Positions 25,298-40,842 of a stretch of DNA of 64,000 bases are shown piece after piece; within the stretch, counting starts at the first letter, position 1; each line of letters opens with the position of its first letter. This DNA comes from an uncultured Eubacteriales bacterium (GTDB lineage Bacteria > Bacillota > Clostridia > Christensenellales > CAG-138). Where the stretch lies: NCBI GenBank assembly GCA_900319345.1, contig ONNZ01000011.1, positions 6,411 to 70,410 on the forward strand, written 5' to 3'. The notes beneath the pieces are model-generated. The model was not told the DNA's origin and did not search any database. It saw only the letters and a list, made by a program, of their open reading frames with translations. A program made the translations under genes and the position numbers.

Positions 25298-26713
25298 ATG
25301 GTCTTTTCTTCCCTGACTTTTTTGTGTCTGTTCCTGCCCCTGGTGGTGGGTCTCCATAGCCTGGTGAAAAACGGCACGGCGCGTAACGCCATCCTGCTGG
25401 CGGCGTCGCTCCTGTTCTACGCCTGGGGGGAGCCGGTGTGGATCGTGGCCATGCTGTTCGCCACCGCGGTGAACTACGTCTGCGCCCGGATCATCGTGGG
25501 CGCCAAGACTGAGGGGGGCAGGAAGCTGGCGTTGGCGGTGGGCATCCTCATCAGCCTGGCGGCCCTGCTGTACTTTAAGTACGCGGCCTTTCTGGTGAAC
25601 AACTTCTGCGGCCTTATGGGCCTTTCCTACCGGATGACCCAGCCCAAGCTCCCCATCGGCATCTCCTTTTACACCTTCCAGATCATCACCTACACCGTGG
25701 ACGTGTACCGGGGCAAGGCGCCGCTGCAGAAGAACCCCCTGTGGCTGTTGCTGTACGTGTCCTTGTTCCCCCAGCTCATCGCCGGGCCCATCGTCCGCTA
25801 TATCGACGTGGCCTCGGCCATCGAGGATCGGAAGGTCACGGTCAAGGGCATGGGGGAGGGCTTCTTCCGGTTCTCGCTGGGCCTGGGCAAGAAGGTGCTG
25901 CTGGCCAACCTGTGCGGCGAGGTGCTGGAAAGCCTGCCTATCCCGGCCCAGATGTCCTGCCTCTCCGGCTGGGTGGCGACCATCCTCTTTACCCTCCAGA
26001 TCTACTTCGACTTCGCCGGCTATTCCGACATGGCCATCGGTCTCGGGCGGATGCTGGGGTTCCGGTTTCTGGAGAACTTCGACGCGCCCCTGGTCTCCAA
26101 GAGCGTCTCCGAGTTCTGGCGGCGCTGGCACATGTCTTTGGGCACCTTCTTCCGGGAGTACGTGTACATCCCCCTGGGCGGCAACCGGGTGAGCAAAGGC
26201 CGCTGGGTCCTCAACATGGCGGTGGTCTGGGGCCTTACGGGCATCTGGCACGGGGCCAACTGGAACTACTTGATCTGGGGCCTCTATTACGGGATGCTGC
26301 TGGTGCTGGAAAAGATGCTGCTGGAAAAGCCCCTGGCGCGGGCCCCCGGCTTTTTACGGCACGTCCTGGTGCTGCTGGTCACCCTGGTGGGCTTCGTGTT
26401 CTTCCGAAACGAATCCTTTGCCGACATCGGCCTCCAGCTCCGAGCCATGTTCGCCCCCTGGCGGGTGCCCCTGTCCGACCCCTACGCCGTGTACGCGGTG
26501 AAGAACAACCCGCTCCTGCTGATCGCCTGCGTCCTCTGCTCCCTGCCCCTGCGCAAGACGGTGGAAGCCTGGTTCAAGCGGCGCCGGGAGGCGGGGCGGC
26601 GGAACGCCTTTAGGCCTTACGTCAAGGCCCTGGTGGCCCTGGCGATCACGGCCCTGTCGGTCATGTTCCTGGTGGGGCAGAGCTTCAACCCGTTCCTGTA
26701 TTTCCGGTTCTGA
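25298..26713 (+). CDS. MBOAT-family membrane O-acyltransferase (AlgI/DltB-like)
   Basis: The 471-aa polytopic ORF has FSSLTFLCLFLP, FYAWGEP, FWRRWHMSL and the WHG conserved-His region. Confidence 0.85.
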   Translation: MVFSSLTFLCLFLPLVVGLHSLVKNGTARNAILLAASLLFYAWGEPVWIVAMLFATAVNYVCARIIVGAKTEGGRKLALAVGILISLAALLYFKYAAFLVNNFCGLMGLSYRMTQPKLPIGISFYTFQIITYTVDVYRGKAPLQKNPLWLLLYVSLFPQLIAGPIVRYIDVASAIEDRKVTVKGMGEGFFRFSLGLGKKVLLANLCGEVLESLPIPAQMSCLSGWVATILFTLQIYFDFAGYSDMAIGLGRMLGFRFLENFDAPLVSKSVSEFWRRWHMSLGTFFREYVYIPLGGNRVSKGRWVLNMAVVWGLTGIWHGANWNYLIWGLYYGMLLVLEKMLLEKPLARAPGFLRHVLVLLVTLVGFVFFRNESFADIGLQLRAMFAPWRVPLSDPYAVYAVKNNPLLLIACVLCSLPLRKTVEAWFKRRREAGRRNAFRPYVKALVALAITALSVMFLVGQSFNPFLYFRF

Positions 26714-26725
26714 GGGAGGCGGCGG

Positions 26726-28186
26726 ATGGCTAAGAAGAGAAAAAAGAAGAGAAACATGGTCCCGGTGGCGGTGGCCTGCCTGGTGCTGCTCCTGCTGCTG
26801 GCGGCCGCTGTCTACGAGCTGCTGCTGCCCGCCGGTCCCGTGTTCTCCGAACGGGAGAACCGGATCCTTTCGGAGAAGCCCGCCTTCTCCTGGAAAGCCT
26901 TTTTCGACGGCAGCTTCGCGGACGATCTGGAGAGATATCTGGCCGACCGGTTCCCCGGCCGCATGGGCTTCATCGACTTTACCCGGGAGTTGAGGCAGGT
27001 GGGGAGCCTGGCCACCTGGGAGGAGTATTCCCTGGTGGCGGAGAGCGACGTGGCCGACATGCAGGACCCGGGGGAGGTGGAGGAGGCCCAACCCATGGTC
27101 ACGCCCCGGCCCACCCGGACCCCCGCGCCCACGCCCACGGCCACGCCCGAGCCTACCCCCGCGCCTACGCCGGATCCCCAGGCTACGCTGACGCCCACGG
27201 ACACGCCGGAGCCCACGCCTACCCCCGTCCCCACGCCCACGCCCCGGCCCACCAAGCCCCCGGCCAGCGCCAACGACTTCCCCGGCGAGCTCCGGGTGGA
27301 TCTTCTGGACGGCACCTCCAAGCGCCGGTCCTATGCCTTCATGCGCTATAAGGTCCAGCGCCAGTGCTCCCTGTTCGACGCCTACGCCTCGCTCCTGCCG
27401 GAGGACGGCATCTTCGCCATCACCATCGTGCCCAACGCCTACCGGGCCAACCGGCTGCTGGCCTTGGACGATCCCAAGGGTATGGTCTCGGAGGTGGAGC
27501 CCTTCATCCATGCCATGACGGCCAACAACGTGGCCGCCTTCTCCACAGCGGACATCCTCTCCGCGCCCATGCTGGCGGGGGAGTACGTGTATTTCCGCTC
27601 CGACATGCACTGGACGCCCTACGGGGCCTATCTGGTGGTCTCTGAGATGCTGGCGGAGGCGGGGGAGACCCTGCCCCCCTACGACGCCTTCCCCAAGACG
27701 CAGGAGCACCCCTTCCTGGGCACCCTCTATCGGGACTCCCTGAACAAGCAGATGGAGGCGAACCCGGACACCCTGGACATCCTGACGCCCATCCGGCCCA
27801 CGGTGGTGCGTCGGTACACCACCCCCCAGAAATACGACGAAGTGCCCTTCATCGACGACAACGCCAGCCCCCGGGACCGGTACACGGTGTACCTGGGCGG
27901 GCCCAAGGGGAACTGGACCGTGGTGGAGCGCACGGACATCCCGGAGGAGTCCTTCGAAAAGACCTGCCTCGTGATCTCCGACTCCTACGGCCTGTGCACC
28001 ATGCCCTTCTTCGCCCAGGCCTATGACCGGGCCATCCTCTACGACGCCCGGTATTACGAGAGGTACGTCATGGGCGCGGTGTCGGGCCTGATCGAAAGCT
28101 GGGGCGTTCAGGACATCTACATGATCCTGGGGGACGCCCATTTCTCCGAGGAGACCTTCTGCAGGCTCTGCAACGCGGAATTCTGA
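26726..28186 (+). CDS. DHHW/AlgJ-AlgX-like extracytoplasmic protein, partner of MBOAT
   Basis: An N-terminal signal-anchor is followed by an ~80-aa Pro/Thr-rich insert. The FRSDMHWTPYGAY motif resembles DHHW. It lies 12 nt after the MBOAT gene. Confidence 0.6.
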   Translation: MAKKRKKKRNMVPVAVACLVLLLLLAAAVYELLLPAGPVFSERENRILSEKPAFSWKAFFDGSFADDLERYLADRFPGRMGFIDFTRELRQVGSLATWEEYSLVAESDVADMQDPGEVEEAQPMVTPRPTRTPAPTPTATPEPTPAPTPDPQATLTPTDTPEPTPTPVPTPTPRPTKPPASANDFPGELRVDLLDGTSKRRSYAFMRYKVQRQCSLFDAYASLLPEDGIFAITIVPNAYRANRLLALDDPKGMVSEVEPFIHAMTANNVAAFSTADILSAPMLAGEYVYFRSDMHWTPYGAYLVVSEMLAEAGETLPPYDAFPKTQEHPFLGTLYRDSLNKQMEANPDTLDILTPIRPTVVRRYTTPQKYDEVPFIDDNASPRDRYTVYLGGPKGNWTVVERTDIPEESFEKTCLVISDSYGLCTMPFFAQAYDRAILYDARYYERYVMGAVSGLIESWGVQDIYMILGDAHFSEETFCRLCNAEF

Positions 28187-28243: not shown

Positions 28244-29836
28244 TTACAGGCTGAAATCCGGGGCGTTGTCCCGCTGGTAGGAGCACCAGTTGCCGTTTTC
28301 GATGAGCTCCTCCCGGGCAAGGAGCAGCAGGAGCGATTCGTCCTGGCCGTAGATGGAGAGCCGATCCAGTATCTTCTGGTAGAAGGCGGCCATCTTCACA
28401 TGATCCTCCACGCCCCGGGACAGGGACAGCTTCCCGTAGTAGTTGGAGATGAAGAGGGTGGCGGCGGAGATGCTCCCCAGCACCAGCTTGATAAGGGTCC
28501 GATACTCCTCCGCCTCCGGGATGGCGCCGAGGCGGGGGAAGAGGCCGCCGTACAGCACCTCGAACACCAGGGCCAAAAGGTACAGCACGATGCTGATCAG
28601 CAGGGCCGCGCCCACCACCCGGCCGCTGATGCGGAGCTTGGTCTGGGCCTTCTTTTGGGCCTTCCGGTGGTAATTGAACTGATCCTCCGCCCAGCAGGCC
28701 CGGATGTCGTGGCTTTCCTTCGGCGCCTCGCCCACGCAGAGGACGGTGATGGCCATGGCGATCCAGGGGGTCTCCTCCTGCTGGCTCCAGGGCAGCAGGG
28801 TGATGGCCTCCCGCCGGACCCCGGCGTAGCGCAGAAAGCCTTGGGCCCGCAGGCTCTCGGCCAGCACCCGGTACTCCAGGTACCGTCGGTGGCAGCTGGA
28901 CCGATAGGCGAACCGGGTCAGCACCCACGCAAGGAGCAGCGAAAGGCCGCACACCAGGATGAGCCAGTGCAGGTTCGCCTCGTCGTACAGCAGGAATGCG
29001 GCGGTGATCAGGGTGCTGAGCACGGCCAGCAGGATGAGGACGCGCCGATACACCTTAGCGAACCGCAGGCTTAGCCGGTCCGCCTGCTGATACACGGCCT
29101 CGATCCGATCGAGGAGGGGGTCCTCCTCCTGGCGCTCCGGCAGCAGGGGATAGGCGTCGGCGGTATCGGTCTTGTCTGCCAAAGCGTTGAACTCCTCCGT
29201 CCGGTCCATGAGCGTCTGCCAGGGCTCCCCGTCCCCCAGCCGCCGCACAGCGCCCGGGACGTTCGCCGCCTGCTCAGTTCGGGGCGTGAAAAGATGGATC
29301 ACCGCCGTGGAGGAGAAGAGGGGGGCGCTGTGGACGGGATGGTAGCTGCCGTGGAGGGCGAACCCCACGGCCTCCGCGGTGCCGCAGCCGGTTTTGGTGC
29401 CGGGGCCCCCGTCCCACAGGGCCAGGAGCACGTGGCAGTGGGTGGCCACGTAGATGCCGGCCTGCCGGTAGTAGAAATCCCGGTCGGGGGCTTGGGGCAG
29501 GGCCTCCGTGGCCGGGGTCACGAAGCGCTGCTCCGCCTTGGATAAAAGGTCCCGAAAGCTATGGAGGGCCGCCCCGGCGAAGTCCTGCTCGTACTCCGCC
29601 AGGGGGAGGGGCAGGGCCGCGACCAGGGGGATGCCCAGGCTGAGGGCGGCTTCGGCGCAGAGCTGGTCGGCCCCCTCGGCCAGACTGTTGAGCATGACCA
29701 TGGGGCTGTGGGGATAGCTCTCCCGCAGCCCTTCCAGCTCTCGCTTCACCCCCGCCAAGAGGGCGGGCCTGTCCTCCGGCCGGATGGCCCGGTGGCCCGT
29801 GACCCCTACCGTCAGGGGGATGCGTTCAGTTTCCAT
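28244..29836 (-). CDS. SLOG (LOG/DprA-like Rossmann) domain fused to a multi-TM, tandem SLATT-like membrane module
   Basis: This is a 530-aa ORF. The N-terminus has VGVTGHR, NSLAEGADQLCAEAAL (DprA-like S.lA.G.D..a..aAL) and WDGGPGTKTGCGTAEAV (LOG-like PGGxGTxxE). The C-terminal half has about 5 hydrophobic helices (VLILLAVLSTLITAAFLLY, WLILVCGLSLLLAWVL, VVGAALLISIVLYLLALVF, LIKLVLGSISAATLFISNYY). Amphipathic helices flank these helices. Confidence 0.6.
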   Translation of the reverse strand: METERIPLTVGVTGHRAIRPEDRPALLAGVKRELEGLRESYPHSPMVMLNSLAEGADQLCAEAALSLGIPLVAALPLPLAEYEQDFAGAALHSFRDLLSKAEQRFVTPATEALPQAPDRDFYYRQAGIYVATHCHVLLALWDGGPGTKTGCGTAEAVGFALHGSYHPVHSAPLFSSTAVIHLFTPRTEQAANVPGAVRRLGDGEPWQTLMDRTEEFNALADKTDTADAYPLLPERQEEDPLLDRIEAVYQQADRLSLRFAKVYRRVLILLAVLSTLITAAFLLYDEANLHWLILVCGLSLLLAWVLTRFAYRSSCHRRYLEYRVLAESLRAQGFLRYAGVRREAITLLPWSQQEETPWIAMAITVLCVGEAPKESHDIRACWAEDQFNYHRKAQKKAQTKLRISGRVVGAALLISIVLYLLALVFEVLYGGLFPRLGAIPEAEEYRTLIKLVLGSISAATLFISNYYGKLSLSRGVEDHVKMAAFYQKILDRLSIYGQDESLLLLLAREELIENGNWCSYQRDNAPDFSL

Positions 29837-31553
29837 ACACCGCCATGCCGCTGCGCTCGGCCAGGGACGGGATGTTGCGGATGGCGTCTCGATCGTAGTC
29901 CTTGATCTCCTCGGACAGCTGGTCGTAGGGCACCAGGTAGGGGGAGGTCTTCTTCTCGGCGTTCCGTTCGCCCAGCTTCCAGCCCCGGCTCAGGCGCTCC
30001 TGCATCCAGGCCTCGTGCTCCAGCTCGGCCATGAACTCCACCAGCTCCGGCGGGAATTCCTTCACGGCGCCCTTCTTGCCCTTGGGCCCCAGGCGGTAGC
30101 CCACCTGCTCCAGCCGGTCGCAGATGTTCTGGGCCTGGCGCAGGTTGCTGTACTTCAAATCATCGGGCAGCTGGGAGAAATCGGGGTAATCCAAAGGCCG
30201 CTCCGGGTGATCCTGGAGCTGCTTCTCGCAGTAGCGGGCGTGGATGGCGATGGCCAGCAGCTCGATATCCTTCAGCAGCGGCCGGGCGTTCACCTTCTGA
30301 AGCTGGGGCTTGAAGGGCTCGAAACTGTCCAGACTCTCCGCGTCCACGTCGAAGCCCAGGGGGAAGATGGCCTTGAGGTCCAGGAGCCCTTGCAAGAGCT
30401 CGATCTTCTCCCTACAGAACTTCTCGGGCAGGTGGCCGTGCCTCGTCACGTAGGTGGCGGAAAGGTATCCGTTCTTGACGGACAGGTGCACCGTGTCCGC
30501 CAGGGTGAAGGTCCGGGTCAGGATGCCGTGAGCCTCCCGGTTCCACTCCTGGAGCTCGTCGCAGAGGATCAGCAAAAAGGCGATGGGGTTCTTCTGGGCG
30601 GCCATGGGCCCGAGGTTGAAGGGCTTCTTCTGCAGCACGTTCCGATAGTAGTTGTGAAGGAGGATGGCCGTGGCGCTGTCGAGGATGGGCCAATAGAACC
30701 GCTCCGGGTGGTCGCCGGACATCTGGATGGCGTAGCCGTACCACTTGAGGATGATCATGGCGCTGTAGTAGCCGTGATCGATGAAGCCGGAGGCGGCCAT
30801 GTCGTTCACGAACCGGTCCACGGCCTTCTTGGTCTCCATGAGATCCGTGCCCAGGGTCTGGTGCACGTGGTGGGCCAAGAGGTCGTTGGGGGTCAAGAGG
30901 TCGATATAGGAGCAGCTCTCATAGGCGTCGTAGTAGGCCCGGGTGAAGGGGCGCTTGGGCACCACCTCCCGGATGTGGTTCAGCTCCGAGAAGTTCTCGA
31001 ATTTGATCTGGGCCTTGACCCGGACCTCGTCCCCGTCCGCGTCCGCCACCATGCGGATGAACCGGTTGATCTGGTGGCCCACGATCTCCACCGGGTAGCC
31101 CACGTCGTGGAACAGGGCCGCCACGCCCCAGCGGAAGAAGAACTCCTCGTGGGGGGTCTGGTAGGCGTAGATGTAGTCCTTCTCGGGCACGGCGCTGTCG
31201 AAGGCCTTCCGGTAGGCCTCGTTCTCGGCGTAGATGCTGAGGCCCGTCAAAAACACGTTCACCGCGTGGATGAAGTGGTCCCGCTGCTTGTCGATGAGGG
31301 TGGCGGCGGTGGCCTCGTAGTGTCGCAGGATGTCCACGAGGTCGATGAACGGGTCGTTCTTGCCGGGCAGGGTGATCCGATAGCTGTCGAAGAAGGCCCG
31401 GTAGACGGCGAAAGCGGTCTCCGGGGTCTCGCCGGACAGGAAGGTCGACACGGCGCCCCGCAGGAAGGACTTGTAGCTGTGGCCCTCCTGCAGGTCGGCG
31501 GCAAGGCTCAGCTGATCGAAAAATCGGTCCACGAAGGGGGAAAGATTGCTCAT
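29826..31553 (-). CDS. HD-domain phosphohydrolase fused to a C-terminal RyR (ryanodine-receptor-type) domain
   Basis: Based on ORF 29826..31583. The start MSNLSPFVDRF follows AAAGGAG. HD motifs are RDHFIHAVNVF and AALFHDVGYP, with IDHGYYS later. The C-terminus reads LAIAIHARYCEK...FMAELEHEAWMQERLSRGWKLGERNAEKKTSPYLVPYDQLSEEIKDYDRDAIRNIP, which matches the RyR-domain pattern. It overlaps the next gene by 11 nt. Confidence 0.65.
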   Translation of the reverse strand: MSNLSPFVDRFFDQLSLAADLQEGHSYKSFLRGAVSTFLSGETPETAFAVYRAFFDSYRITLPGKNDPFIDLVDILRHYEATAATLIDKQRDHFIHAVNVFLTGLSIYAENEAYRKAFDSAVPEKDYIYAYQTPHEEFFFRWGVAALFHDVGYPVEIVGHQINRFIRMVADADGDEVRVKAQIKFENFSELNHIREVVPKRPFTRAYYDAYESCSYIDLLTPNDLLAHHVHQTLGTDLMETKKAVDRFVNDMAASGFIDHGYYSAMIILKWYGYAIQMSGDHPERFYWPILDSATAILLHNYYRNVLQKKPFNLGPMAAQKNPIAFLLILCDELQEWNREAHGILTRTFTLADTVHLSVKNGYLSATYVTRHGHLPEKFCREKIELLQGLLDLKAIFPLGFDVDAESLDSFEPFKPQLQKVNARPLLKDIELLAIAIHARYCEKQLQDHPERPLDYPDFSQLPDDLKYSNLRQAQNICDRLEQVGYRLGPKGKKGAVKEFPPELVEFMAELEHEAWMQERLSRGWKLGERNAEKKTSPYLVPYDQLSEEIKDYDRDAIRNIPSLAERSGMAVYGN

Positions 31554-31618
31554 GTTTCTGCTCCTTTCGTTGCTTAGATACAATTATATCCGTTTCCGCG
31601 CCCAAAGGGAAGGGGGGA

Positions 31619-34600
31619 TCATTGGATTTCCAGCCTAAAAACGTACCCCTCGCCCAGGGAGTCGGCGGCTTCGGCCATGTCGCTGGACAGGTACAGCTGT
31701 CTAAGATCGTTCGGCAGCTCCCGCAGGCAGCTTAGGTCCGTGAGCTGGGGGTTCCAGCGAAGGTCCAGCTGCTCCAGCATGGGATGGGCGGCCACGAAGG
31801 CCCGAAGCTGCTCGTTGGTGATGCCCGAGCGGTGGCAGGAGAGATCGTGCATCTCCTTGCCCATCACGTGATCCAGCCACCGATCCACCGGCACGTTGTT
31901 CATGTTCAGCCCCCAGTAGACGGGCACCGCCTCCAACACCCCGTAGTCCTCGTAGGTGAGCTTGTTGCTGTCCGTCACGTCCAACGCCACCCAAAAGCCC
32001 CAGCTGTTGTAATCCTCCGACGTGCAGTAGCTATAGTCCACCCGTTCGAGGGGCGAGAAGTCCCGCACGTTGGTGCCGGACAGGCTGATGCTGACCAGGC
32101 GGGGCAACTGCTCGATGCCCGCGATGCTGTCGATGGGCTCGTTTCGCAGGCTGACGTCCTCCAGGGAGGCCGTCCGCCACAGGGCGGAGAAGTCGGTGAT
32201 CTTGCGGCATTCCTCGATGGTGATCCGCCGAAGCTGGGGGAAATCCTCCACGCCGTCCAACGTGGTCAAATCCTGGCCGTACAGGTCCAGCTGCTCCAGG
32301 TTCGGCAGCAAAGCGGCCAGCTCGCCCATGTCCGTCACGGCCCCGGCGAGCAGGGGCAGCCGTTCGTCGGTCTCGTTGCTGTGCAGATACAGCTTCGGCG
32401 GGTCGGTGACCCAGTCCTCCTCGAACCACCAGGGGCCGCCGGCGTAGACGTATTCGCCCGCGAGGGACAGGCTCTTGATGTACCGCCGCATCGCCTCCGG
32501 CTGGGCCTTCAGCTCCTTGAAGGTCATCATGGGCAGCTGGAAGGCCACGTCCTCCAGGGCGGAGCAGGCGGCCAGGGGCGACAGGTCCGTCACGGGGCTG
32601 CCGTTCACGTCCAGGCGCCGGAGAGCGTACAGGTTCTGTATCCCCTGGAGGGAGGCGACGCCGGTGTACTGGAACCGCAGCTCCTCCAGACTCTGGATCG
32701 TGAAGGCGGCGGAGGCGTCGGCGAGGGCCGGGCACTGCCGGATGTCCAGGTTCTTGAGATCGCCCATGGCCTGGATGCCCTCCAGGGAGGCGAGCTCCAG
32801 CTGGGCGTAGACGGTCAGCTCCCGAAGCCCCGTCAGCTTTTCAAGGACGGTCAGGTCCGTCAGCGTCCCCGGCTCCACGGGTATGCGCTCCTCCTCCCCG
32901 TCGTAGCGAAGGTACAGGGCGGGCGGGTCCGTGGCCCAGTCCTCCTCCACCCAGGCGCCCTCGGGCACCACCGCGTCCCCGGCCAACGTCAGCCGGCCGA
33001 TGCGTCCGAGGAGGGCGCTGGGGAGGCTGTCGATCTCCGCAAGGCTCGCAAGCTCGATGTCAGGCTGGACGGGCTCCCATCCGCCCTCCGGGTAGACGAC
33101 CTGATACGCCTCCAGCAGGCCGCTGTCCACCATGGCCTGGGCCTGCTCCATAAGATGGGCCGGGATCTGCAGGCTCTTGCCCTTCAGGTGGTAGAGGGGC
33201 GACAGGTCCGTGACCCCGTCCACGTCCATAAGGGAGATGCTGTACCAGTCCTGCTTATAGTTTTCGAAGCAGGACAGGTCCTTGAGGTCGAAGATGGTGG
33301 TGAGGGTGATGTTCTTGGTCACCACGTTTCCGAAGTCAGGCAGGCTGAACAGCCCCTCCAAATGGATCTCGTAGATGCTCCGCCCCGTCAGAGCCGACCA
33401 GTCGTAGAGCCGGGGGCAGTTATAGATCTCCAGCTCCTGCATCCTGGGCATCCCCTCCAGTCCGGCAAGGGAGGCGAGGTAGGGGCAGTCGTCCAGGATC
33501 AGCCGTCGGGCGTCGGGCTGGTCCAGCCCCTCCAGGGAGCGGACGCAGTGGAGCAGCAGCTCGTTGGTCACATGGGGGAGCAGGGTCACGTCCAGCCCCT
33601 CGCTCTGGTTGCCCCGGCCGCCCCGGTTCCACAGCTCGAAGTCAGTGACCGTGGCGTTCTGGACATAGGGCAGGGCGCTGCCGTTCCGGTCCGTGATGTT
33701 GAGATAGCTGTATTTTTCGATGGCGGCCAGGCCCTCCCAGTTCGGCACCTCCGCGATGCCGAAGGAGAAGTATTCCTTGTTCTCGATATCCCAGAGGAAG
33801 TCCACGTCGTTGACGTCGACCCCATACAGCTGCAGGTCCCGGAGCTTGGGGAGCTTGGTCACCGGTGTCAAATCTCGCAAGGCGAAGCACTCGTGCATGG
33901 TCAGGGACTCGAGAGCCGTGCAGCCCGAGAGGGCGGAGATGTCCGTCAGGTTCCGCAGGTTCCAGGTGTTGATCTGCCGCAGCCTCACATGGTCCTCCAG
34001 CCCGTGGAAGGACCGCAGGGTCTCCATGTTGGAGAGGCTCAGCTGTTTCAGCGATCGGCAGCCCGCCAGGAAGGACAGGTCGCTGACAGGGCAGTCCTGC
34101 AAGTAGAGTTTGTCCAGATTGACGCAGGAGGAGAGGGCGGTCAGGTCCCTGAGCTGGAAGCAGCCGTCGATGTCCACACTGTCCAGCAGCACCTTGCTGT
34201 TGAGCCCCTGGAGGCTGGTGAGCCTCTCCATGCCCCGCAGATGCACTCTGCTCAGGGCGCTGGCGTTCGAAAGGCAGGTCAGGTCCAAAATGGGCACGTT
34301 GGCAAAGTGCACATGATCCAGCTTCCGGCAGTTTTTCAACCCGGACAGGTTGACGGTCCGCTGCTCCCCTTCCAGGCTCAGGTTCAAATCCCTCAGGCTG
34401 GCGGGGCCGAATCCGGACAGGTCCGCTTCGGCGGTCCCGTACAGGTTCATGAACACGGTGTTGAGCTGCGGGCACTCGTTGAGGGGGGAGAAGTCCAGCA
34501 CCGGGCCGTGGTAGTTGAACACCTGCAGTCGGCGGCCCTTCACCCCGGAGATGTCGTCGATGGCGCAGTCGAAGAGCTCCACGCAGTCCAGCTTCTGGAG

Positions 34601-35404
34601 GCCCGACAGGTCCGGCAGCGTGCCCTCCACCTGGACCAGCGTCAGCAGCATCAGGTTCTTCATATAGGGCAGGAAGCTCAGATCCCCCCAATCGTGGAGG
34701 GCGTACTCGTGGCCGTCCTCGGCACTGTACCAGTGGGCCCGGCCCTCCTCCACGCTGAAGCTTCGATTGGCGACCTGCTCCACGCCCACCCGGGAGATGC
34801 CCCGGTCCGCCAGGGTCCCGTCGTCCTCGCTGAAGGCGTAGAAGCCGTTCCCCACGATGATGAGCTCGTGGACCTGCTCCAGCTCCTGCAGGGTCAGGTC
34901 CACCTCCTTCGGGAACACGGGCTCCGGAGTGGGCGTGGCGGGGATCGGTGTGGGGGGCAGCGGCGGCGGGACTTGCCGCTTCTGAAACAGGACGATGCCG
35001 CCCACCAGGAGCAGCGCCACAGCCGCCAGGGACAGGATCAGGGGCAGGCGGTTCCTTCTATCGCCCATGGCCGCCGTGGCGATCCGGCCCGCCAGCTCCT
35101 CCGGCCCGTATTTCTGGCCGTCCAGGCCGTGCCGGGCCATGAGGGCGCGCTGGAGCTCCTCCGGGGGCGTGGACCCGTCCAGGTTCACCGGGATCACCAG
35201 CGCCCGGCCCGCGTTGAGCCGGAAGAATTGGTCCGCCTCCGGGCTGTCCGCCGACAGGCTTTCCGACAGGAACAGCATCAGGGCGTCCCCCTTCCGGGGG
35301 TCTGCGGCGCGCACGGTGACGCCCTTCTTCTTCAGGGCGTCCAGGATGGGCTTCACGCGGCTCTCGTCCGCGGGGGCGTAGAGGGGATAGATGGCTCGTT
35401 TCAT
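31619..35404 (-). CDS. TIR-like domain / single TM / large extracellular leucine-rich-repeat protein (1,261 aa)
   Basis: The N-terminus is a flavodoxin-like beta-alpha-beta pattern (AIYPLYAPADESRVKPILDALKKKGVTV...ALMLFLSESL...PEAD...ALVIPVNLDG). An Arg-rich stop-transfer (GDRRNR) precedes the TM helix LPLILSLAAVALLLVGGIVLF, then a Pro-rich linker. About 1,050 aa of ~22-24-aa LRRs follow (L..L..L.L..C..L.DLS.L). Confidence 0.65.
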   Translation of the reverse strand: MKRAIYPLYAPADESRVKPILDALKKKGVTVRAADPRKGDALMLFLSESLSADSPEADQFFRLNAGRALVIPVNLDGSTPPEELQRALMARHGLDGQKYGPEELAGRIATAAMGDRRNRLPLILSLAAVALLLVGGIVLFQKRQVPPPLPPTPIPATPTPEPVFPKEVDLTLQELEQVHELIIVGNGFYAFSEDDGTLADRGISRVGVEQVANRSFSVEEGRAHWYSAEDGHEYALHDWGDLSFLPYMKNLMLLTLVQVEGTLPDLSGLQKLDCVELFDCAIDDISGVKGRRLQVFNYHGPVLDFSPLNECPQLNTVFMNLYGTAEADLSGFGPASLRDLNLSLEGEQRTVNLSGLKNCRKLDHVHFANVPILDLTCLSNASALSRVHLRGMERLTSLQGLNSKVLLDSVDIDGCFQLRDLTALSSCVNLDKLYLQDCPVSDLSFLAGCRSLKQLSLSNMETLRSFHGLEDHVRLRQINTWNLRNLTDISALSGCTALESLTMHECFALRDLTPVTKLPKLRDLQLYGVDVNDVDFLWDIENKEYFSFGIAEVPNWEGLAAIEKYSYLNITDRNGSALPYVQNATVTDFELWNRGGRGNQSEGLDVTLLPHVTNELLLHCVRSLEGLDQPDARRLILDDCPYLASLAGLEGMPRMQELEIYNCPRLYDWSALTGRSIYEIHLEGLFSLPDFGNVVTKNITLTTIFDLKDLSCFENYKQDWYSISLMDVDGVTDLSPLYHLKGKSLQIPAHLMEQAQAMVDSGLLEAYQVVYPEGGWEPVQPDIELASLAEIDSLPSALLGRIGRLTLAGDAVVPEGAWVEEDWATDPPALYLRYDGEEERIPVEPGTLTDLTVLEKLTGLRELTVYAQLELASLEGIQAMGDLKNLDIRQCPALADASAAFTIQSLEELRFQYTGVASLQGIQNLYALRRLDVNGSPVTDLSPLAACSALEDVAFQLPMMTFKELKAQPEAMRRYIKSLSLAGEYVYAGGPWWFEEDWVTDPPKLYLHSNETDERLPLLAGAVTDMGELAALLPNLEQLDLYGQDLTTLDGVEDFPQLRRITIEECRKITDFSALWRTASLEDVSLRNEPIDSIAGIEQLPRLVSISLSGTNVRDFSPLERVDYSYCTSEDYNSWGFWVALDVTDSNKLTYEDYGVLEAVPVYWGLNMNNVPVDRWLDHVMGKEMHDLSCHRSGITNEQLRAFVAAHPMLEQLDLRWNPQLTDLSCLRELPNDLRQLYLSSDMAEAADSLGEGYVFRLEIQ

Positions 35405-35433
35405 GGGGGTTCCTTTCTATAGTCCGGTGTGTC

Positions 35434-38400
35434 TCAACCCACTTGCAGCTCGAACCCGTACCCCTCCCCCAGGGAGGCTTTGGCCTGGGCCATGTTGGGA
35501 GACATCCGGACCTTCCGCAGGTTTTCCAGATTCAGCAGGCAGCTCACGTCGGTCAGCTGCGGGTTCCAGGAGATCTGCACCTCCTCCAGCTCCGGATGGG
35601 CCTCCACGAAGGCTTTGAACTGTTCGTTGGTGAAGCCGCAGTCGTCGGCGTTGAGCCGCTTCACGGGCTTTCCCGCCAGATGATCCAGCCACAGCTTGGC
35701 GGGCACGTTGTGGAGCTCCAGCTGGGAGAAGCCGGGGATGCCCTCCAGGAAGGCGTAGGCGTCCTGGGGCAGGCTGTCGCTGTTCATCACGTTCAGGGCA
35801 AGCGACACGCCCGGCTCCCGGTCCTGGGTCATGGCATAGGTGAAGTCCACCTGACCCAGGGGCGAGAAGTCCCGGATGTTGGTCCCCGCCACCCGTACCT
35901 GGCGCAGGTGCTTGAGCCCCTCAATGCCCTCGAGAGAGGTGATCTTCGTGTTGCACACCTCCAGCATCTCCAGGTCGTAGAGGTTCTGCACCCCCTGGAG
36001 GGAGGCCACGGGGCAGCGCTCGAAGTTGATCTCCTTGAGCCCCTGGAGGGTGAAGGCGGCGGAAACGTCCGTCAGGTTCGGGCTGAACATCACCCTGAGC
36101 CGCTGCAGGTTCTCGAGAGCCTGGACGCCTTCGAGGCTGGTTAACGGCTGCCACCACAGGTTCAGATCCTCCAAGCCCGTCAGCACGCTGAGCTTGGAGA
36201 GGTCCGTGATCCGGGTCCCGGGCTTGTCGATCTTCTTCTGCTCGCCCGTGGCCCGATCCTCGACGAAGGCGGGCACGTTCTGCTGCCCCCAATCGGACCA
36301 GAAGTTCGTGGTATCGTCGTTCACCAGCTCATCGCCGATGATGGTGAGCCGCTTCACATGCTTCAACAGGGAGGGGGGCAGGGTCTCCAGCTCATCGAGG
36401 CTCAGCAGCTGTACCTGCATGTCGCTGGGGTCCCAGCCGCCGTCGGGATAGACGATCTCGTACTTCTTGAACCGCTTGTCCTCCACCAGCCCCTTGGCCT
36501 GCTCGCCCACCTGGGGCGGCACCTCCAGCTTGTTTCCATGGAGCCGGAACAGGGGGGCGAGGCTGGCGATCTGAGGCAGGTCCTCCAGACGGAAGCTGTA
36601 GCTTCGATCATCGCTGATCCCGTCAAGACAGCTTAGATCAGGCAGCACGTCCTCCGACAGCTTTTCCAATGTCAGCTCCTGGAAGGCAACGGCGCTGAAA
36701 TCGGGCAGCGTCAGCACCCGTTCGATCTCGAGCCGGTGGAAGGTCTTTCCTTCGATCCCCGACCAGTCCGAGAGACGGGGGCAGTTTTCCACGGTCAGGA
36801 TGCTGTCCGCCTTGCCGAAGCCGGTCAAATTTTCGATGCCGGCGAAGGAGGTGAAGTAGGGGCAGTCCTGGATCCAGAGCTTCGTACTGAAGTTCATCTC
36901 CCGGATGCCGGTGAGATCCCGGTTGAGGCAGTCGCACAGGTCCAGCTCCCCGGTCACGTTGGGCAGGGTGGAGAGGTCCACCAGACCCCCGTTGTAGATC
37001 ATCAGCTGGCGGATGGTTTTTCCCTCCAGATAGGGTGCCACCGCAGCGTAGTTGCCGCAGGTGTTCGCATGCACGTAGTTGAAGGTGTCGATGGCGTCGA
37101 TGCCCGAATAATCGCAGGGACCGGCGATGCAGAACTCCAGGACCACGTTCTTTTTGATCCGCAGCTCCTTCAAAAAGTCCAGACTGCCGATGTGGTTCGC
37201 CCCGAACAGAGCGATGCTTTGGAGCCGGGGGAGCCGGCCCAGCACGCTCACGTCCGTCAGGTACTCCAAGGGACCGTTTCCGGAGAGACGGAACTCGACG
37301 AGGCTGCTGCAGCCTTCCAATGGGGAGATGTCCCTGAGCAGAGGGGCGTCGTTGATGTTGACGATCTTCAGGTACCGATGATCCTCCAGTCCCTCCAGGG
37401 TCCTTAGCCCTTCCAGATCGTCGATCCGCAGCTCCTCCAGCAGGGGCGCCCCTTCGAGGCCAGTGAGGGTGCGCAGAGAATCCGTCCAACGCAGCTCCAG
37501 CTTCTTAAGCTTACCGGCGTTGGCGAGGCAGCTTAGATCGGTGAGCTGAGGGTAGCCGTCGACGAGCAGCTCCTGCAGGTTGGGACACTGGAGCAGGAAG
37601 GAGAAGTCCACCCCTTCCACACCAAAGCCGGACCCCAGGCCAAAACTGACCAGCTTGGGCGGATGGAAAGAGGAAAGGTCCACCCGGGGGGAGCCCACCA
37701 GGTCCAGATGGGCGGAGCGCAGATTCTGGCAATCCGTAAGGGGCGAGAAATCGCTGACGCCCGCGCCGTGATATTCGATGTTCTGGATGGTGCTTCCCCG
37801 GAGCCCTTCCAGATCGGAAAGGTCGCTGTAGCCCACCATCACGTCCCGCAGGTCCGTAAGCCCCGAAAGGTCCGGCAAAGTGGCGGTCACGTTGTACAGG
37901 GAGAGGAACCGCAAATTGGGCAGCAGAGCCAGCCAGCTGAGGTCGTCCAGCGTCACGTGGGGATACTCGTGACCGTCCTCCTTGCTGTAGAAGTGGACGC
38001 CGTCATCCATCCAGCCGCCGTAGGCAAAGTCCTCGTCGCGGCGCGGGTTCACGTACTTGCCCTTGGTGTTCTTCTCGTCAAAGGTATAGAAGTGGAACTC
38101 GTCGCCCATGAACACCACCTCGGCCACCTGCTCGAGATCCACATCGATGCCGTCCACCCGGGGCGGCTCCGTAGGGGCCGGCGTGGCCGTGGCGGGGACC
38201 TCCGTGGCGGGCGGCGTCGGCGGGGGCGGGGTCTGCCGCTGCCGGAACAGGAGGATGGCGCCTACGGCCAGGAACGCCGCCGACCCGATCAAGGTCAGGA
38301 TCAGGGGCAGGAGGCTCTTTTTATCGCCCTTGACCGCCTTGGCCACAAGGTCGCTGAGCTCCTCTGCGCTGTACTTGCGGCCGTCCAGGGTGTGGCGGGC

Positions 38401-38667
38401 CATGAGGGCGTTCTGCAGCTCCTCCGGGGGCGTGGACCCGTCCAGGTTCACCGGGATCACCAGTTCCCGGCCCGCGTTCAGCCGGAAGAAATCGTCCACG
38501 GCGGGGCTGTCCAACCCCAGGTTTTCCGACAGGAACAACACCAGGGCGTCCTTCTTGCCGGGCTTCGCGCTCCGCACCGTGACGCCCCTTTGCCCCAGGG
38601 CATCCAGGATGGGCTTCACCCGGCTCTCGTCCGCGGGGGCGTACAGGGGATAGATGGCTCGCTTCAT
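35434..38667 (-). CDS. TIR-like domain / single TM / extracellular leucine-rich-repeat protein (1,077 aa), paralog of 31619..35404
   Basis: Based on ORF 35434..38682. The start MKRAIYPLYAPADESRVKPILDAL follows AAAGGAAAG. The first ~100 aa are largely identical to the downstream paralog. The TM helix is LLPLILTLIGSAAFLAVGAILLF. The LRR ectodomain is divergent. Confidence 0.65.
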   Translation of the reverse strand: MKRAIYPLYAPADESRVKPILDALGQRGVTVRSAKPGKKDALVLFLSENLGLDSPAVDDFFRLNAGRELVIPVNLDGSTPPEELQNALMARHTLDGRKYSAEELSDLVAKAVKGDKKSLLPLILTLIGSAAFLAVGAILLFRQRQTPPPPTPPATEVPATATPAPTEPPRVDGIDVDLEQVAEVVFMGDEFHFYTFDEKNTKGKYVNPRRDEDFAYGGWMDDGVHFYSKEDGHEYPHVTLDDLSWLALLPNLRFLSLYNVTATLPDLSGLTDLRDVMVGYSDLSDLEGLRGSTIQNIEYHGAGVSDFSPLTDCQNLRSAHLDLVGSPRVDLSSFHPPKLVSFGLGSGFGVEGVDFSFLLQCPNLQELLVDGYPQLTDLSCLANAGKLKKLELRWTDSLRTLTGLEGAPLLEELRIDDLEGLRTLEGLEDHRYLKIVNINDAPLLRDISPLEGCSSLVEFRLSGNGPLEYLTDVSVLGRLPRLQSIALFGANHIGSLDFLKELRIKKNVVLEFCIAGPCDYSGIDAIDTFNYVHANTCGNYAAVAPYLEGKTIRQLMIYNGGLVDLSTLPNVTGELDLCDCLNRDLTGIREMNFSTKLWIQDCPYFTSFAGIENLTGFGKADSILTVENCPRLSDWSGIEGKTFHRLEIERVLTLPDFSAVAFQELTLEKLSEDVLPDLSCLDGISDDRSYSFRLEDLPQIASLAPLFRLHGNKLEVPPQVGEQAKGLVEDKRFKKYEIVYPDGGWDPSDMQVQLLSLDELETLPPSLLKHVKRLTIIGDELVNDDTTNFWSDWGQQNVPAFVEDRATGEQKKIDKPGTRITDLSKLSVLTGLEDLNLWWQPLTSLEGVQALENLQRLRVMFSPNLTDVSAAFTLQGLKEINFERCPVASLQGVQNLYDLEMLEVCNTKITSLEGIEGLKHLRQVRVAGTNIRDFSPLGQVDFTYAMTQDREPGVSLALNVMNSDSLPQDAYAFLEGIPGFSQLELHNVPAKLWLDHLAGKPVKRLNADDCGFTNEQFKAFVEAHPELEEVQISWNPQLTDVSCLLNLENLRKVRMSPNMAQAKASLGEGYGFELQVG

Positions 38668-38700
38668 AGTCTTTCCTTTCAAATACTGTATGGATGATGC

Positions 38701-39915
38701 TTACGGCACCAGCACCACGGTGAAATCACAGGTCTCCGGCCAAACGAGGGGCAGCATGTCCGCGCTGACGGTGACGGTCTTCAGCGACGGCAGATCCGCC
38801 AGGGGACTTAGGTCCTTCACGCCGCTGTGTTCAAGATGCAGCGTCTCCAGCCGGGGCAGGTCCGTGAGCCCCGTCAGGGTTTCCAACGACCTGTCACCGG
38901 ACAGGTACAGCTCCTTCAGCATCACGAGGCCGCTGAGGGCCCGGGCGCTGGACAGGGGCTGATACACCAGGGCCAGCTTCTCGAGATAGGCCATCTTCCC
39001 GATGATGGACAGATCCCGCACCTTGCCCTCCTGGGGCTTGCTGCCGTTCACCAGGCATTCCCCCTGGTGGGTGAAGGCCGTGTGTTCCAGATCCGGCGCG
39101 TACATGTTGCCCACGATGGCCAGTTCCGTCACCGCCGCCAGCTCGTTCAGCTTGATCTTCTCCGTGGCCCCGACGGTCCCCAGGATCACCCGGACGGCCT
39201 TCTCCTGATCCGTGTCGGGGAAGTCCACCTCGTCCATGCCCGGGGGGAAGGAGGGCGTGGGGGGCGGGGTGCTCGTGGCGTCAGGGGTGGCTGTAGGCGT
39301 GGGCGCGGGGGTGGCCGTGGCCGTGGCGGTGGGGGAGGGGGTCGGCGTCGAGCCCCCATAAATCAGCTGGTCCCACCAGCCGGCGTAGACCCCGTAGGCC
39401 CCCGCCAGGGCTGCCCCGAACAGGATCGCGGACAGCAGGAACCCGAACAGGCCCCGGGGAAGCTTCTCCCACCACTTGCGGTAGAAGGCCCCCTTGAGTT
39501 TCTTGTGCCGGGTGACCTGGTCCGCCCGGGCCTTGGCGTCCCCGGGGGTGGGGAGGGGAAGGCAGCTTTTTAATAAGGTCTCCCACTCGCTGCCGGGCTC
39601 AGGCCGACTGTCGTCCAGGGCGAAGTACAGCACGGGCTTTTTCAGGGCTACGGCGGTCTCGATCTCCGAACGGCAGTTGCTGGAGGCGAGGGCCGTCCTG
39701 GACAGGAAGAACAGGACCATGGCCGAGCAGCGCATGTGGGTCTCGATGTTCTTGGGCCAGTCGTTGCCCGCCGGGATGCCCTCGTCGTACCAGAGCCGGA
39801 CCTTTCGCTGGTGGAGCAGGGTGATGGTCTCCAGGACCTCCGGGGAATCCCGGTGAGAATAGCTGATGAACAGATAGGGTCGCTTGCCCTCGTAGGGGGT
39901 GAAGAAGGCGCTCAT
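38701..39915 (-). CDS. canonical TIR domain / single TM / Pro-Thr linker / short LRR ectodomain protein (404 aa)
   Basis: The N-terminus follows the TIR_2-type pattern, including the W/N..xE glutamate position. It reads RPYLFISYSHRDSPEVLETITLLHQRKVRLWYDEGIPAGNDWPKNIETHMRCSAMVLFFLSRTALASSNCRSEIETAVALKKPVLYFALDD. The TM helix is GLFGFLLSAILFGAALAGAYGVY. A (TPxP)n linker follows, then LRRs (LKELYLSGDRSLETLTGLTDLPRLETLHLEHSGVKDLSPLADLPSLKTV). Confidence 0.75.
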   Translation of the reverse strand: MSAFFTPYEGKRPYLFISYSHRDSPEVLETITLLHQRKVRLWYDEGIPAGNDWPKNIETHMRCSAMVLFFLSRTALASSNCRSEIETAVALKKPVLYFALDDSRPEPGSEWETLLKSCLPLPTPGDAKARADQVTRHKKLKGAFYRKWWEKLPRGLFGFLLSAILFGAALAGAYGVYAGWWDQLIYGGSTPTPSPTATATATPAPTPTATPDATSTPPPTPSFPPGMDEVDFPDTDQEKAVRVILGTVGATEKIKLNELAAVTELAIVGNMYAPDLEHTAFTHQGECLVNGSKPQEGKVRDLSIIGKMAYLEKLALVYQPLSSARALSGLVMLKELYLSGDRSLETLTGLTDLPRLETLHLEHSGVKDLSPLADLPSLKTVTVSADMLPLVWPETCDFTVVLVP

Positions 39916-40760
39916 GGCTGGTCACCTCCCGCCACGATCAGGGTGTAGCTGTCGTAGAGCTCCGGCTGCTCCGGGGCCCCCTGGGCCGCCGCCTCCGACA
40001 GGATCAGGGTGGTGAGGCGGGGGAGAAGGGCAAGCTCCTTTGGGTTTTCGGGCAGTTGGGACAGATACAGGCTCTCCAGCTCGGCCACCGCTTCCTCCGT
40101 GATGGGGCCGCCGCCGATGGCGAAGCGGACCGCCTCCCGCAAGGCTTCGTCCTGGAAGAGGACCGCGTCCTCCGGCGGGGCGACCTCCTCCTGGGGCGGC
40201 GGCGCGGGGGGATTCAGATACCGATACGCCCCGGCGCCTCCGGCCAGCAGCAGGGCCAGCACGATCAGCAGGACGCTGATCCGCCGGAGCCACAGCCGGT
40301 CGTAGACGGGCAGCGGGTCCCCCCGATAGAGTTGAGAGAAGTAGGGGCTGTGGAAGATGGCGCCCACCAGCTCCGAGGCGTTGGTCCCCGGGGTGACGGA
40401 GGAGAACTGGCCCGTGAGTCCCAGGGAAAGGCCCCCGTCCCCGCCGTCCGTGTTCAGCACCAGGATGGGCTGCCGGGCCTTCTGGCAGACCAGCAGCTGG
40501 TTCTTCAGCTCCATGTCCCGCCGGGCGCTGTCCGTGAGGAACAGCACCGTGAGCCCGGCCCCCAGCATGCGCTGGCTTCGAGCGTTCCCGCTGGTCCTGT
40601 CCCGGGAGTAGCCCACGCAGTACCACACCCGGCAGCCCCGGAGCAGCAGCTGCCGCAGCAGGGGCCGGACCTTGCGCTCGTCCCGGTCGGAGAAGCACAG
40701 GTGGATGTAGGGCTCCGCGCCCATATAGGGGGGATAGTAGGTTTCGGTTTTGCTGGCCAT
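39912..40760 (-). CDS. divergent TIR-like domain / single TM / short ectodomain protein (282 aa)
   Basis: The TIR-like part reads EPYIHLCFSDRDERKVRPLLRQLLLRGCRVWY...LTVLFLTDSARRDMELKNQLLVCQKARQPILVLNTD. The TM helix is RRISVLLIVLALLLAGGAGAY. An ~100-aa C-terminal segment has one or two LRR-like units. An ATGA overlap joins it to the next gene. Confidence 0.55.
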   Translation of the reverse strand: MASKTETYYPPYMGAEPYIHLCFSDRDERKVRPLLRQLLLRGCRVWYCVGYSRDRTSGNARSQRMLGAGLTVLFLTDSARRDMELKNQLLVCQKARQPILVLNTDGGDGGLSLGLTGQFSSVTPGTNASELVGAIFHSPYFSQLYRGDPLPVYDRLWLRRISVLLIVLALLLAGGAGAYRYLNPPAPPPQEEVAPPEDAVLFQDEALREAVRFAIGGGPITEEAVAELESLYLSQLPENPKELALLPRLTTLILSEAAAQGAPEQPELYDSYTLIVAGGDQP

Positions 40761-40813: not shown

Positions 40814-40842
40814 AGTATATCTTTTTTTCTCCCCCGTGGCAA
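40814..40842 (-). promoter_or_regulatory. sigma-70-like promoter of the TIR-LRR cluster
   Basis: On the minus strand the layout is TTGCCA, a 17-nt spacer, then TATACT. Downstream are a 7-bp hairpin (cttgagg...cctcaag) and the RBS AAGGAAGGGG before the ATG at 40760. Confidence 0.5.

Follow-up and report, generated by a model that had tools for sequence, protein, structure and literature searches.

The window analysed here is a stretch of 64,000 nucleotides from contig ONNZ01000011.1 of an uncultured Eubacteriales bacterium. Its minus strand carries six co-directional, tightly packed genes (28244-40760), the last of which encodes the subject of this report: a 530-residue protein that joins an N-terminal SLOG domain to a membrane part made of two two-transmembrane (2TM) modules. 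Directly upstream lies the gene for a soluble partner protein with a ryanodine receptor (RyR) Repeat12-type domain, and beyond it are four genes for receptor-like proteins that combine TIR-like domains with leucine-rich repeats (LRRs). On the sequence evidence, the 530-residue protein probably serves an NAD-derived alarm pathway as its membrane output. The features of the cassette, together with related operons on plasmids, are collected in Table 1.

Table 1. Coordinates of the cassette genes, of the parts of the SLOG-2TM protein and of related plasmid operons
Feature	Coordinates	Strand	Basis or remark
SLOG-2TM gene, 530 aa, SLOG plus 2 x 2TM (SLATT-type) membrane protein	28244..29836	minus	final cassette gene
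Conserved cytoplasmic C-terminal helix and tail, aa 500-530	28247..28339	minus	conservation, model
2TM module 2, aa 375-500, divergent SLATT-like duplicate (predicted)	28337..28714	minus	NCBIfam SLATT_4, hhalign
2TM module 1, aa 236-345	28802..29131	minus	Pfam DUF4231, NCBIfam SLATT_1/SLATT_3, hydropathy, model
SLOG (YpsA/YAcAr-like) Rossmannoid domain, aa 1-222	29171..29836	minus	Foldseek, BFVD, Pfam YAcAr, invariant columns
Partner gene, 575 aa, soluble, RyR Repeat12-type	29826..31553	minus	directly upstream of the SLOG-2TM gene
1261-aa protein: degenerate TIR-like aa 1-120, transmembrane aa 122-140, Pro-rich linker, large LRR ectodomain	31619..35404	minus	
1077-aa paralogue of the 1261-aa protein	35434..38667	minus	extra copy
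404-aa protein: TIR_2 aa 16-107, transmembrane aa 155-173, Pro/Thr linker, LRRs aa 229-385	38701..39915	minus	
282-aa protein: degenerate TIR-like domain, transmembrane aa 161-179, short ectodomain	39912..40760	minus	first gene of the cassette
Promoter-like site TTGCCA-17-TATACT	40814..40842	minus	upstream of the first gene, consensus match only
TIR-caspase-SLOG(-TIR) operons	L089 4635-6489; L090 4617-6986; L091 5163-7368; L093 3642-5483		plasmids of B. subtilis (pBS72), Rhizobium binae, Methylorubrum, Agrobacterium (pTi)

The SLOG-2TM gene is real and conserved. Its open reading frame (ORF) begins with ATG, and the plus-strand frame across the same interval is interrupted by stop codons. An earlier note on this DNA had given the coordinates exactly and left the strand, here found to be minus, unstated. 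All peptides that it quoted were located in the translation: VGVTGHR (residues 10-16), SLAEGADQLCAEAAL (51-65), GGPGTKTGCGTAEAV (143-157), QADRLSLRFAKVYRRVLILLAV (250-271), WLILVCGLSLLLAWVL (291-306), YLEYRVLAESLR (319-330), FNYHRKAQKK...LLISIV (387-417), LIKLVLGSISAATLFIS (448-464) and HVKMAAFYQKILDRL (479-493). A word-indexed search returned at least 786 homologues at E<=1e-3; the best 120 of these are all about 530 residues long, share 53-89% identity end to end, and come from metagenome bins of Clostridia, Oscillospiraceae and Lachnospiraceae. An exhaustive HMMER search yielded 6372 representatives of 50%-identity clusters at E<=1e-3 and 640 at E<=1e-30. The family keeps its full-length architecture down to about 30% identity, and species-representative genomes, mostly of rumen and gut Clostridia, contributed at least 578 matches. 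Family-wide counts with hidden Markov models, given below, were taken over 74 divergent members.

The N-terminal domain was assigned mainly by its predicted fold. In an AlphaFold2 model of the protein built from 47 homologues (mean predicted local distance difference test (pLDDT) 89.3, predicted template modelling score (pTM) 0.87), residues 8-220 form an alternating beta/alpha domain, with beta-alpha units at residues 8-200. The best Foldseek match in the PDB is YpsA of Bacillus subtilis (2nx2; E 2.5e-4; target-normalised TM-score 0.64 over 166 columns), followed by DprA from three species (3uqz, 5mll, 4ljk), ShosA, TM1055 and YgdH, and all of these belong to the SMF/DprA-LOG (SLOG) fold group. 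Likewise, the top matches among the predicted viral structures of BFVD are proteins named “DprA-like” and “YspA cpYpsA-related SLOG domain-containing”. At the sequence level, a search of PDB sequences gave nothing at E<=10, and YAcAr was the sole Pfam SLOG model to be matched; the same model matches 15 of the 74 divergent members at E<=0.01 (best 6.6e-5). These results bear out the SLOG identity proposed by the earlier note, and no different Rossmann family, which the note had named as the finding that would speak against it, fits the domain. The protein lies below the curated thresholds of every SLOG model and, because it scores under the YAcAr cut-off, the domain is by its modelled fold classed as a divergent SLOG subfamily of the YpsA/YAcAr type.

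Three motifs characterize this domain: GxTGHR (residues 11-16), AEGAD (53-57) and LWDG...CGTAE (140-155). The YpsA and YAcAr families are small and soluble, whereas the SLOG domain studied here is part of a membrane protein and represents a divergent subfamily with GxTGHR, AEGAD and WDG..CGTAE motifs. Residues G11, G14, H15, R16, A53, G55, D57, L140, W141, D142, G143, C151, G152, T153 and A154 are invariant or near-invariant, and the PGGxGTxxE-like motif retains its glutamate (CGTAE, E155). The DprA/LOG-like motifs picked out earlier from the sequence of this one protein coincide with these invariant or near-invariant family positions, and the motif pattern is thus well beyond chance. Judged from the strand ends in the model, the three motifs would line a ligand pocket.

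The nearest annotated SLOG relatives are stand-alone genes of about 160 residues, which occur within TIR-caspase-SLOG(-TIR) operons on plasmids of four genera; in this plasmid search the SLOG domain alone was matched. The relative on the Rhizobium plasmid is annotated as DUF1273, which we take to be the YpsA family. A further stand-alone SLOG ORF of 159 residues is present on plasmid pSCL4 of Streptomyces clavuligerus (L092, 5001-5480), where the PLSDB record has no gene. It is unannotated, carries the motifs GITGHR / LADGPD / VWDG..GGTADAV and is flanked by two ORFs for HTH/TPR-like regulators, a context that is uninformative.

The remainder of the protein (residues 236-530) is all-helical with four hydrophobic helices. 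This number had been claimed in the earlier note, and both hydropathy and the confident AlphaFold2 model agree with it: hydropathy peaks fall at residues 266-284, 292-310, 407-425 and, more weakly, 448-466, and the modelled helices span residues 240-287, 292-313, 379-429 and 442-467. Taken together, they delimit two hairpin units with flanking cytoplasmic helices, at residues 240-337 and 379-496. Module 1 consists in order of an amphipathic helix, TM1 (~266-284), an outer loop of 4 residues, TM2 (~292-310) and an arginine-rich helix, YLEYRVLAESLR, in which R323, E327 and R330 are invariant. In module 2, a Lys/Arg-rich helix is followed by TM3 (~407-425), an outer loop of 12 residues, TM4 (~448-466) and a helical tail. 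Clusters of lysine and arginine stand before TM1 and TM3 and after TM2 and TM4, the positive-inside charge pattern. The predicted topology is N-in/C-in and, given loops of 4 and 12 residues, almost nothing of the protein would protrude outside.

The two modules differ in how firmly they can be named. Module 1 matches Pfam DUF4231 above threshold (25.9 bits against a gathering score of 24.7), a family that we take to be a member of the SLATT clan. Among the 74 divergent members, SLATT_3 matches 54, DUF4231 30, SLATT_1 13 and, over module 2, SLATT_4 15. The earlier note had described two SLATT-like modules; the description stands for the first, and the second is SLATT-like with weaker matches. 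The relationship between the two is also seen in a direct comparison. Aligned with hhalign, they pair in the register TM1-TM3, TM2-TM4 and tail helix-tail helix (P 2.3e-4, probability 44%); the score is 26.3, against 10.7 +/- 2.2 in 150 column-shuffled controls, none of which exceeded 17.7, and 13.95 with a reversed module. In BFVD, a SLATT protein appears at rank 35 (E 0.15). We accept on these sequence comparisons a membrane part of two consecutive 2TM modules, the first of the SLATT type and the second a putative divergent duplicate of it.

A transporter reading of the C-terminal half was considered and rejected. The only resemblance to a transporter family, a possibility raised in the earlier note, consists of Foldseek matches to ABC transporters that amount to noise (probability 0.08-0.57, TM-score 0.1-0.16, root-mean-square deviation ~30 Å). 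Pfam DUF2207_C, DUF1345 and DUF7266 all scored under their cut-offs on the protein.

Conservation in the membrane half is highest in its juxtamembrane and C-terminal helices, where R323, E327, R330, Q386 and W517 do not vary even in relatives of 30% identity. This suggests that the membrane half is more than an anchor. The C-terminal helix and tail (ELIENGNWCSYQRDN.PDFSL) are among the most conserved parts of the whole protein: E509, E510, L511, E513, W517, Y520 and N524 are invariant among close homologues, and E509, E513 and W517 remain near-invariant down to 30% identity. No known domain was matched by residues 500-530. The tail may make contact with the SLOG domain or with the partner protein.

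The partner gene appears to be co-transcribed with the SLOG-2TM gene, and its stop region overlaps the ATG of the latter by 11 nucleotides. Pfam RyR matches residues 503-561 of the partner (E 2.6e-14), the match to a solved bacterial/human RyR chimera reaches E 1.6e-22, and H513, W516, D554 and R555 are invariant in the domain. In the model of the partner (pLDDT 84), about 195 columns align with the whole two-repeat Repeat12 of human RyR3, including its ATP- and ADP-bound forms. The N-terminal domain of about 400 residues is all-alpha with invariant D92, H96, H149, D150, H260, H300 and D332. A profile search of PDB sequences and a search of Pfam matched no family to it, and the Foldseek list for the whole partner model is occupied by RyR matches. 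An HD-phosphohydrolase was considered for this domain; Pfam HD matches 1 of 52 members (E 0.089) and, as the assignment is unconfirmed, the domain is labelled HD-like by motif only. Some homologues of the partner (740-750 residues; P0349, P0352, P0369) carry a C-terminal TIR fusion in which the Glu is present.

A function for such RyR domains has been described in phages. Phage RyDEP proteins were shown in 2026 to bind or hydrolyse 2'/3' cyclic ADP-ribose (cADPR) through His, Trp and Asp residues common to RyR Repeat12 (PMC13232231). The partner shares the RyR domain (PF02026) and keeps the His, Trp and Asp positions (H513, W516, D554). In contrast to RyDEP, it is host-encoded and lies inside a TIR cassette, is fused to an all-alpha domain of 400 residues, and folds in the model as a whole two-repeat R12 unit. 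The position that matches RyDEP H100 appears to be Ser, as judged by eye from an alignment of RyR rather than of RyDEP itself.

The four upstream proteins follow a common plan of a TIR-like domain of about 100 residues at the N-terminus, one transmembrane helix, a Pro/Thr linker and an LRR region, which is very large in two of them; none has a signal peptide. Their N-terminal domains are of three kinds, which are homologous TIR-like domains according to hhalign (probability 99.5% and 97.1%). Only the 404-residue protein gives a strong match to Pfam TIR_2 (E 2.1e-15), in addition to the ThsB models of PADLOC. Its E84 aligns with the WCxxE glutamate of the solved Cat1 TIR and is invariant in 41 of 41 relatives. 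The other three N-domains lack a glutamate at the catalytic position, which is variable and mostly non-acidic in the two other families. The TIR of the 404-residue protein is presumed to be the signal-making enzyme, and the retention of the glutamate in this protein alone suggests a cassette with one enzyme and several scaffolds. The two giant paralogues (1077 and 1261 residues) are about 80% identical in their N-domains and about 35-39% in their ectodomains; the 1077-residue copy is absent from four otherwise collinear cassettes (L002, L013, L015, L017), and related loci hold between 0 and 5 LRR genes. Imperfect tandem repeats with periods of 18-33 nucleotides occur at 38167-38231, 39274-39335 and 40161-40204, where they coincide with the stretches that encode the Pro/Thr linkers just past the transmembrane helix of the receptor-like genes. 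They are possible sites of variation in linker length.

To place the cassette in context, ORFs were called at 80 loci from species-representative genomes, nearly all of them metagenome-assembled genomes of rumen and gut Clostridia, and searched with profiles of the window proteins. Counts refer to the 46 loci whose flanks reach at least 8 kb on the upstream and 5 kb on the downstream side, and to features within 10 kb of the SLOG-2TM homologue. The RyR-type partner is found at 36 of the 46 and is directly adjacent upstream at 22. A same-strand TIR-like gene occurs at 33 loci, and partner and TIR-like gene occur together at 27. The minimal form, at L005, comprises the RyR partner and the SLOG-2TM gene alone. 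The cassette recurs in unrelated neighbourhoods, beside aconitase/isocitrate dehydrogenase, spoVA/radC or RNase T/gyrase; there its nucleotide identity to the window is 74-78% and the flanks differ. Given these counts, the RyR-TIR fusions and the plasmid TIR-caspase-SLOG operons, the SLOG subfamily, the RyR partner and the TIR genes are linked by neighbourhood and by fusion.

Other features of the region stand apart from the cassette. The products of a convergent gene pair on the plus strand (25298-28186) are an MBOAT acyltransferase and a DHHW/AlgX-like SGNH protein, which probably act together in O-acylation of a cell-surface polymer; in L012 and L017 other DNA takes the place of the gene pair between flanks that remain syntenic. 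Plus-strand ORFs over the cassette (e.g. 29784-31577, 31784-35422) gave no family matches and were set aside as antisense artefacts of the 65% G+C content.

Proteins of this general kind have been anticipated. SLATT is defined in Pfam as the “SMODS and SLOG-associating 2TM effector domain” and was predicted earlier to form pores in response to nucleotide signals. The coupling of SLOG to SLATT is therefore a known pattern, the name itself meaning SLOG-associating. Burroughs et al. in 2015 reportedly defined both domains. Some SLOG clades are catalytic, and the SLOG proteins of conflict systems are predicted to be sensors or signal-processing enzymes.

The closest functional parallels are found in Thoeris systems. 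The SLOG domain of type I Thoeris is the receiver of 3'cADPR, the TIR product, and activates the SIR2 fused to it; the TIR of type VII produces canonical cADPR, and a SLATT protein proposed to form oligomers in the membrane is the type VII effector (bioRxiv 10.64898/2025.12.03.692087). The type VII effector ThsH, proposed to oligomerise into a membrane-breaching assembly on a TIR-made ADP-ribose (ADPR) derivative, resembles the present protein by domain description, both being described or predicted as SLATT-type 2TM membrane effectors encoded with a signal-making TIR. It differs in that the preprint gives ThsH a SLATT annotation only and proposes ligand pockets between protomers, whereas the present protein contains a fused, separate SLOG domain and a duplicated 2TM unit. 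The ThsH system has 2 genes, while the operon described here has 5-6, with membrane-anchored TIR-LRR and RyR proteins. ThsA (SIR2-SLOG) offers the parallel of a SLOG receiver of a TIR-made cADPR isomer that activates a fused effector module, although a soluble SIR2 NADase takes the place of a membrane module as its output. The top 50 fold matches of the protein include YpsA and DprA and do not include ThsA. Among the candidate Thoeris effectors of the same preprint is “SLOG and 4TM” (Table S2, bioRxiv 10.64898/2025.12.03.692087). Set beside our protein by description, the two candidates (Streptomyces sp. GKU 895, Ca. Nitrospira nitrosa) have a matching domain description and stand beside a TIR gene, but they come from other phyla and from a two-gene context.

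Less precedent was found for the operon. In the searchable literature, a scope outside which the founding SLOG/SLATT paper falls, we did not find a membrane-anchored TIR with extracytoplasmic LRRs in an inverted Toll-like-receptor layout, a cassette with one catalytic TIR and several degenerate TIR-like domains, or a host-encoded RyR Repeat12 protein in a TIR cassette. A literature search for an RyR domain together with SLOG returned nothing relevant. The SLOG-2TM protein is thus of a known kind, and the receptor-like, RyR-containing operon appears to be undescribed.

We consider it reasonably likely that the protein is the membrane output, as effector or channel, of a multi-gene TIR cassette, acting as a SLOG-gated four-helix pore or channel that responds to a TIR-made ADPR-type signal. 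The support comes from domain identity, conservation and linkage, and the part of the SLOG domain as receiver of the TIR product is drawn by analogy with ThsA. The LRR ectodomains would detect an event at the cell surface, and detection would cluster the cytoplasmic TIR and TIR-like domains. The single catalytic TIR would then make from NAD+ a signal derived from ADP-ribose, for example a cADPR isomer, which would dock in the SLOG pocket formed by GxTGHR, AEGAD and WDG...CGTAE. Binding would re-pack or oligomerise the four-helix membrane part and let ions or small solutes pass, with growth arrest or death of the attacked cell as the outcome. The RyR partner, translationally coupled to the SLOG-2TM gene, would bind or hydrolyse the signal and so set a threshold or switch the response off. 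The earlier note had predicted a ligand-gated membrane effector, and the context of the locus, with a TIR that has an invariant catalytic Glu and with an RyR protein, supports that prediction.

More tentatively, the animal TLR/SARM1 - cADPR - TRPM2/RyR axis may have a bacterial counterpart in the cassette, built from the same domain kit. Its parts would be surface LRR-TIR receptors, one catalytic and several scaffolding; an ADPR-type messenger made by the TIR; a channel or pore gated by SLOG; and a host RyR Repeat12 protein as binder or hydrolase. The likeness is one of analogy only. Animal Toll-like receptors have in common with the TIR-LRR genes an LRR ectodomain, one membrane-spanning helix and a TIR on the cytoplasmic side, yet the order is reversed in the bacterial proteins, which have an N-terminal TIR and are type II membrane proteins. 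TRPM channels are said by Burroughs et al. 2015 to have an N-terminal SLOG-type domain; unlike TRPM2, however, the protein described here has a SLATT-type membrane module and not a 6-TM channel, and common descent is not claimed.

Several observations weigh against the SLOG-gated effector. At the domain level, the YAcAr match is sub-threshold (14.3 bits against a cut-off of 28.2, E 0.036), SLATT_1 (E 1.4e-4) and SLATT_3 (E 4.5e-4) match the module 1 stretch under their cut-offs, and the assignment of module 2 rests on weak matches, SLATT_4 reaching 22.6 bits against a cut-off of 55 over residues 393-493 (E 7.5e-5). At the level of defence, PADLOC recognises nothing in the cassette except the TIR; its matches to the SLOG-2TM protein itself are weak (range 0.007-0.03; KwaA E 0.0066, “4TM effector” E 0.025) and were not used as evidence. 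No homologue was found in phage genomes. The flanks in four inspected contexts consist of housekeeping genes without defence islands, and in the handful of loci inspected gene by gene there is no enrichment of defence genes, by which Thoeris systems are recognised. The link with TIR is frequent and not obligate, because 8 of the 46 surveyed loci have the RyR partner without a TIR within 10 kb and 4 have neither. In addition, two “SLOG and 4TM” systems, compared here by description only, gave no protection in E. coli.

Some of these points fit a pathway that keeps the same chemistry and serves physiological transmembrane signalling rather than abortive infection. The LRRs would then sense a host, dietary, cell-wall or neighbour cue, the TIR product would be a second messenger, and the SLOG-4TM protein would be a reversible ligand-gated ion channel, functionally like the ADPR-gated TRPM2, which the RyR protein resets. 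The sensors of the cassette are extracytoplasmic, whereas known Thoeris TIRs detect infection inside the cell (bioRxiv 10.64898/2025.12.03.692087). The cassette also sits among housekeeping genes and is widespread, chiefly in rumen and gut Clostridia, and a built-in module for binding or degrading the signal suits a resettable pathway. Nevertheless, the SLATT-type modules described to date are killing effectors, known or predicted, and it is typical of immune receptors that LRR genes vary in number from locus to locus and that ectodomains diverge fast beside a conserved signalling domain. The presence of the cassette in different neighbourhoods at the nucleotide identities given above speaks the same way, and we regard physiological signalling as unlikely.

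Two further explanations deny the SLOG domain its sensory role. It could be an enzyme, tethered to the membrane, that produces or matures the signal as a LOG/YpsA-like N-glycosidase or a nucleotide-processing enzyme, with the helices serving only as an anchor beside the TIR receptors. The catalytic SLOG clades, the prediction of signal-processing enzymes among conflict-system SLOG proteins, and the retained E155 of CGTAE would agree with this, as would the nearest plasmid relatives, in which a stand-alone SLOG lies beside TIR and caspase and the caspase is the effector. A plain anchor, however, needs no two SLATT-type hairpins with R323, E327, R330, Q386 and W517 kept to 30% identity; the minimal two-gene form has no other candidate effector, and YpsA, the best fold match, is not a characterised enzyme. 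An enzymatic role is improbable in our view. Alternatively, the protein could be neither sensor-gated nor part of a TIR pathway, but an unrelated membrane protein that neighbours LRR genes, for example a cell-envelope factor working with the RyR protein. The 12 of 46 loci that have no TIR-like gene within 10 kb and the partner N-domain of no recognisable family leave some room for it. Against this stand the co-occurrence of TIR, SLOG and RyR, three modules linked to ADPR signals, the SLOG-SLATT and RyR-TIR fusions, and the recurrence of the same SLOG subfamily with TIR on plasmids of other phyla, and we see very little likelihood in such an unrelated function.

The SLOG-gated effector would have consequences beyond this locus. 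The protein bears out the prediction in the literature that SLOG sensors are coupled to SLATT pores, and its family, being abundant, well conserved and confidently modelled, is suited to studying how SLOG gates a membrane module. The operon is more interesting than the protein, as its TIRs are membrane-anchored behind large, fast-diverging LRR ectodomains, an arrangement that suggests triggering of the TIR from outside the cell. To our knowledge, the bacterial TIR signalling described to date is a response to phage inside the cell. If true, the cassette would supply the first example of a bacterial TIR pathway with a trigger outside the cell and, for a bacterial RyR domain, the first role in cADPR-type signalling that is cellular (non-phage). 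Three questions could then be tested directly: what a surface LRR receptor of a Gram-positive bacterium senses, which derivative of ADPR the SLOG-SLATT protein reads, and whether RyR-type domains count as ancient modules for handling cADPR, a point relevant to the long-debated link between cADPR and the ryanodine receptor. Since the family is common in rumen and gut Clostridia, it may affect phage-host or host-microbe dynamics in these environments.

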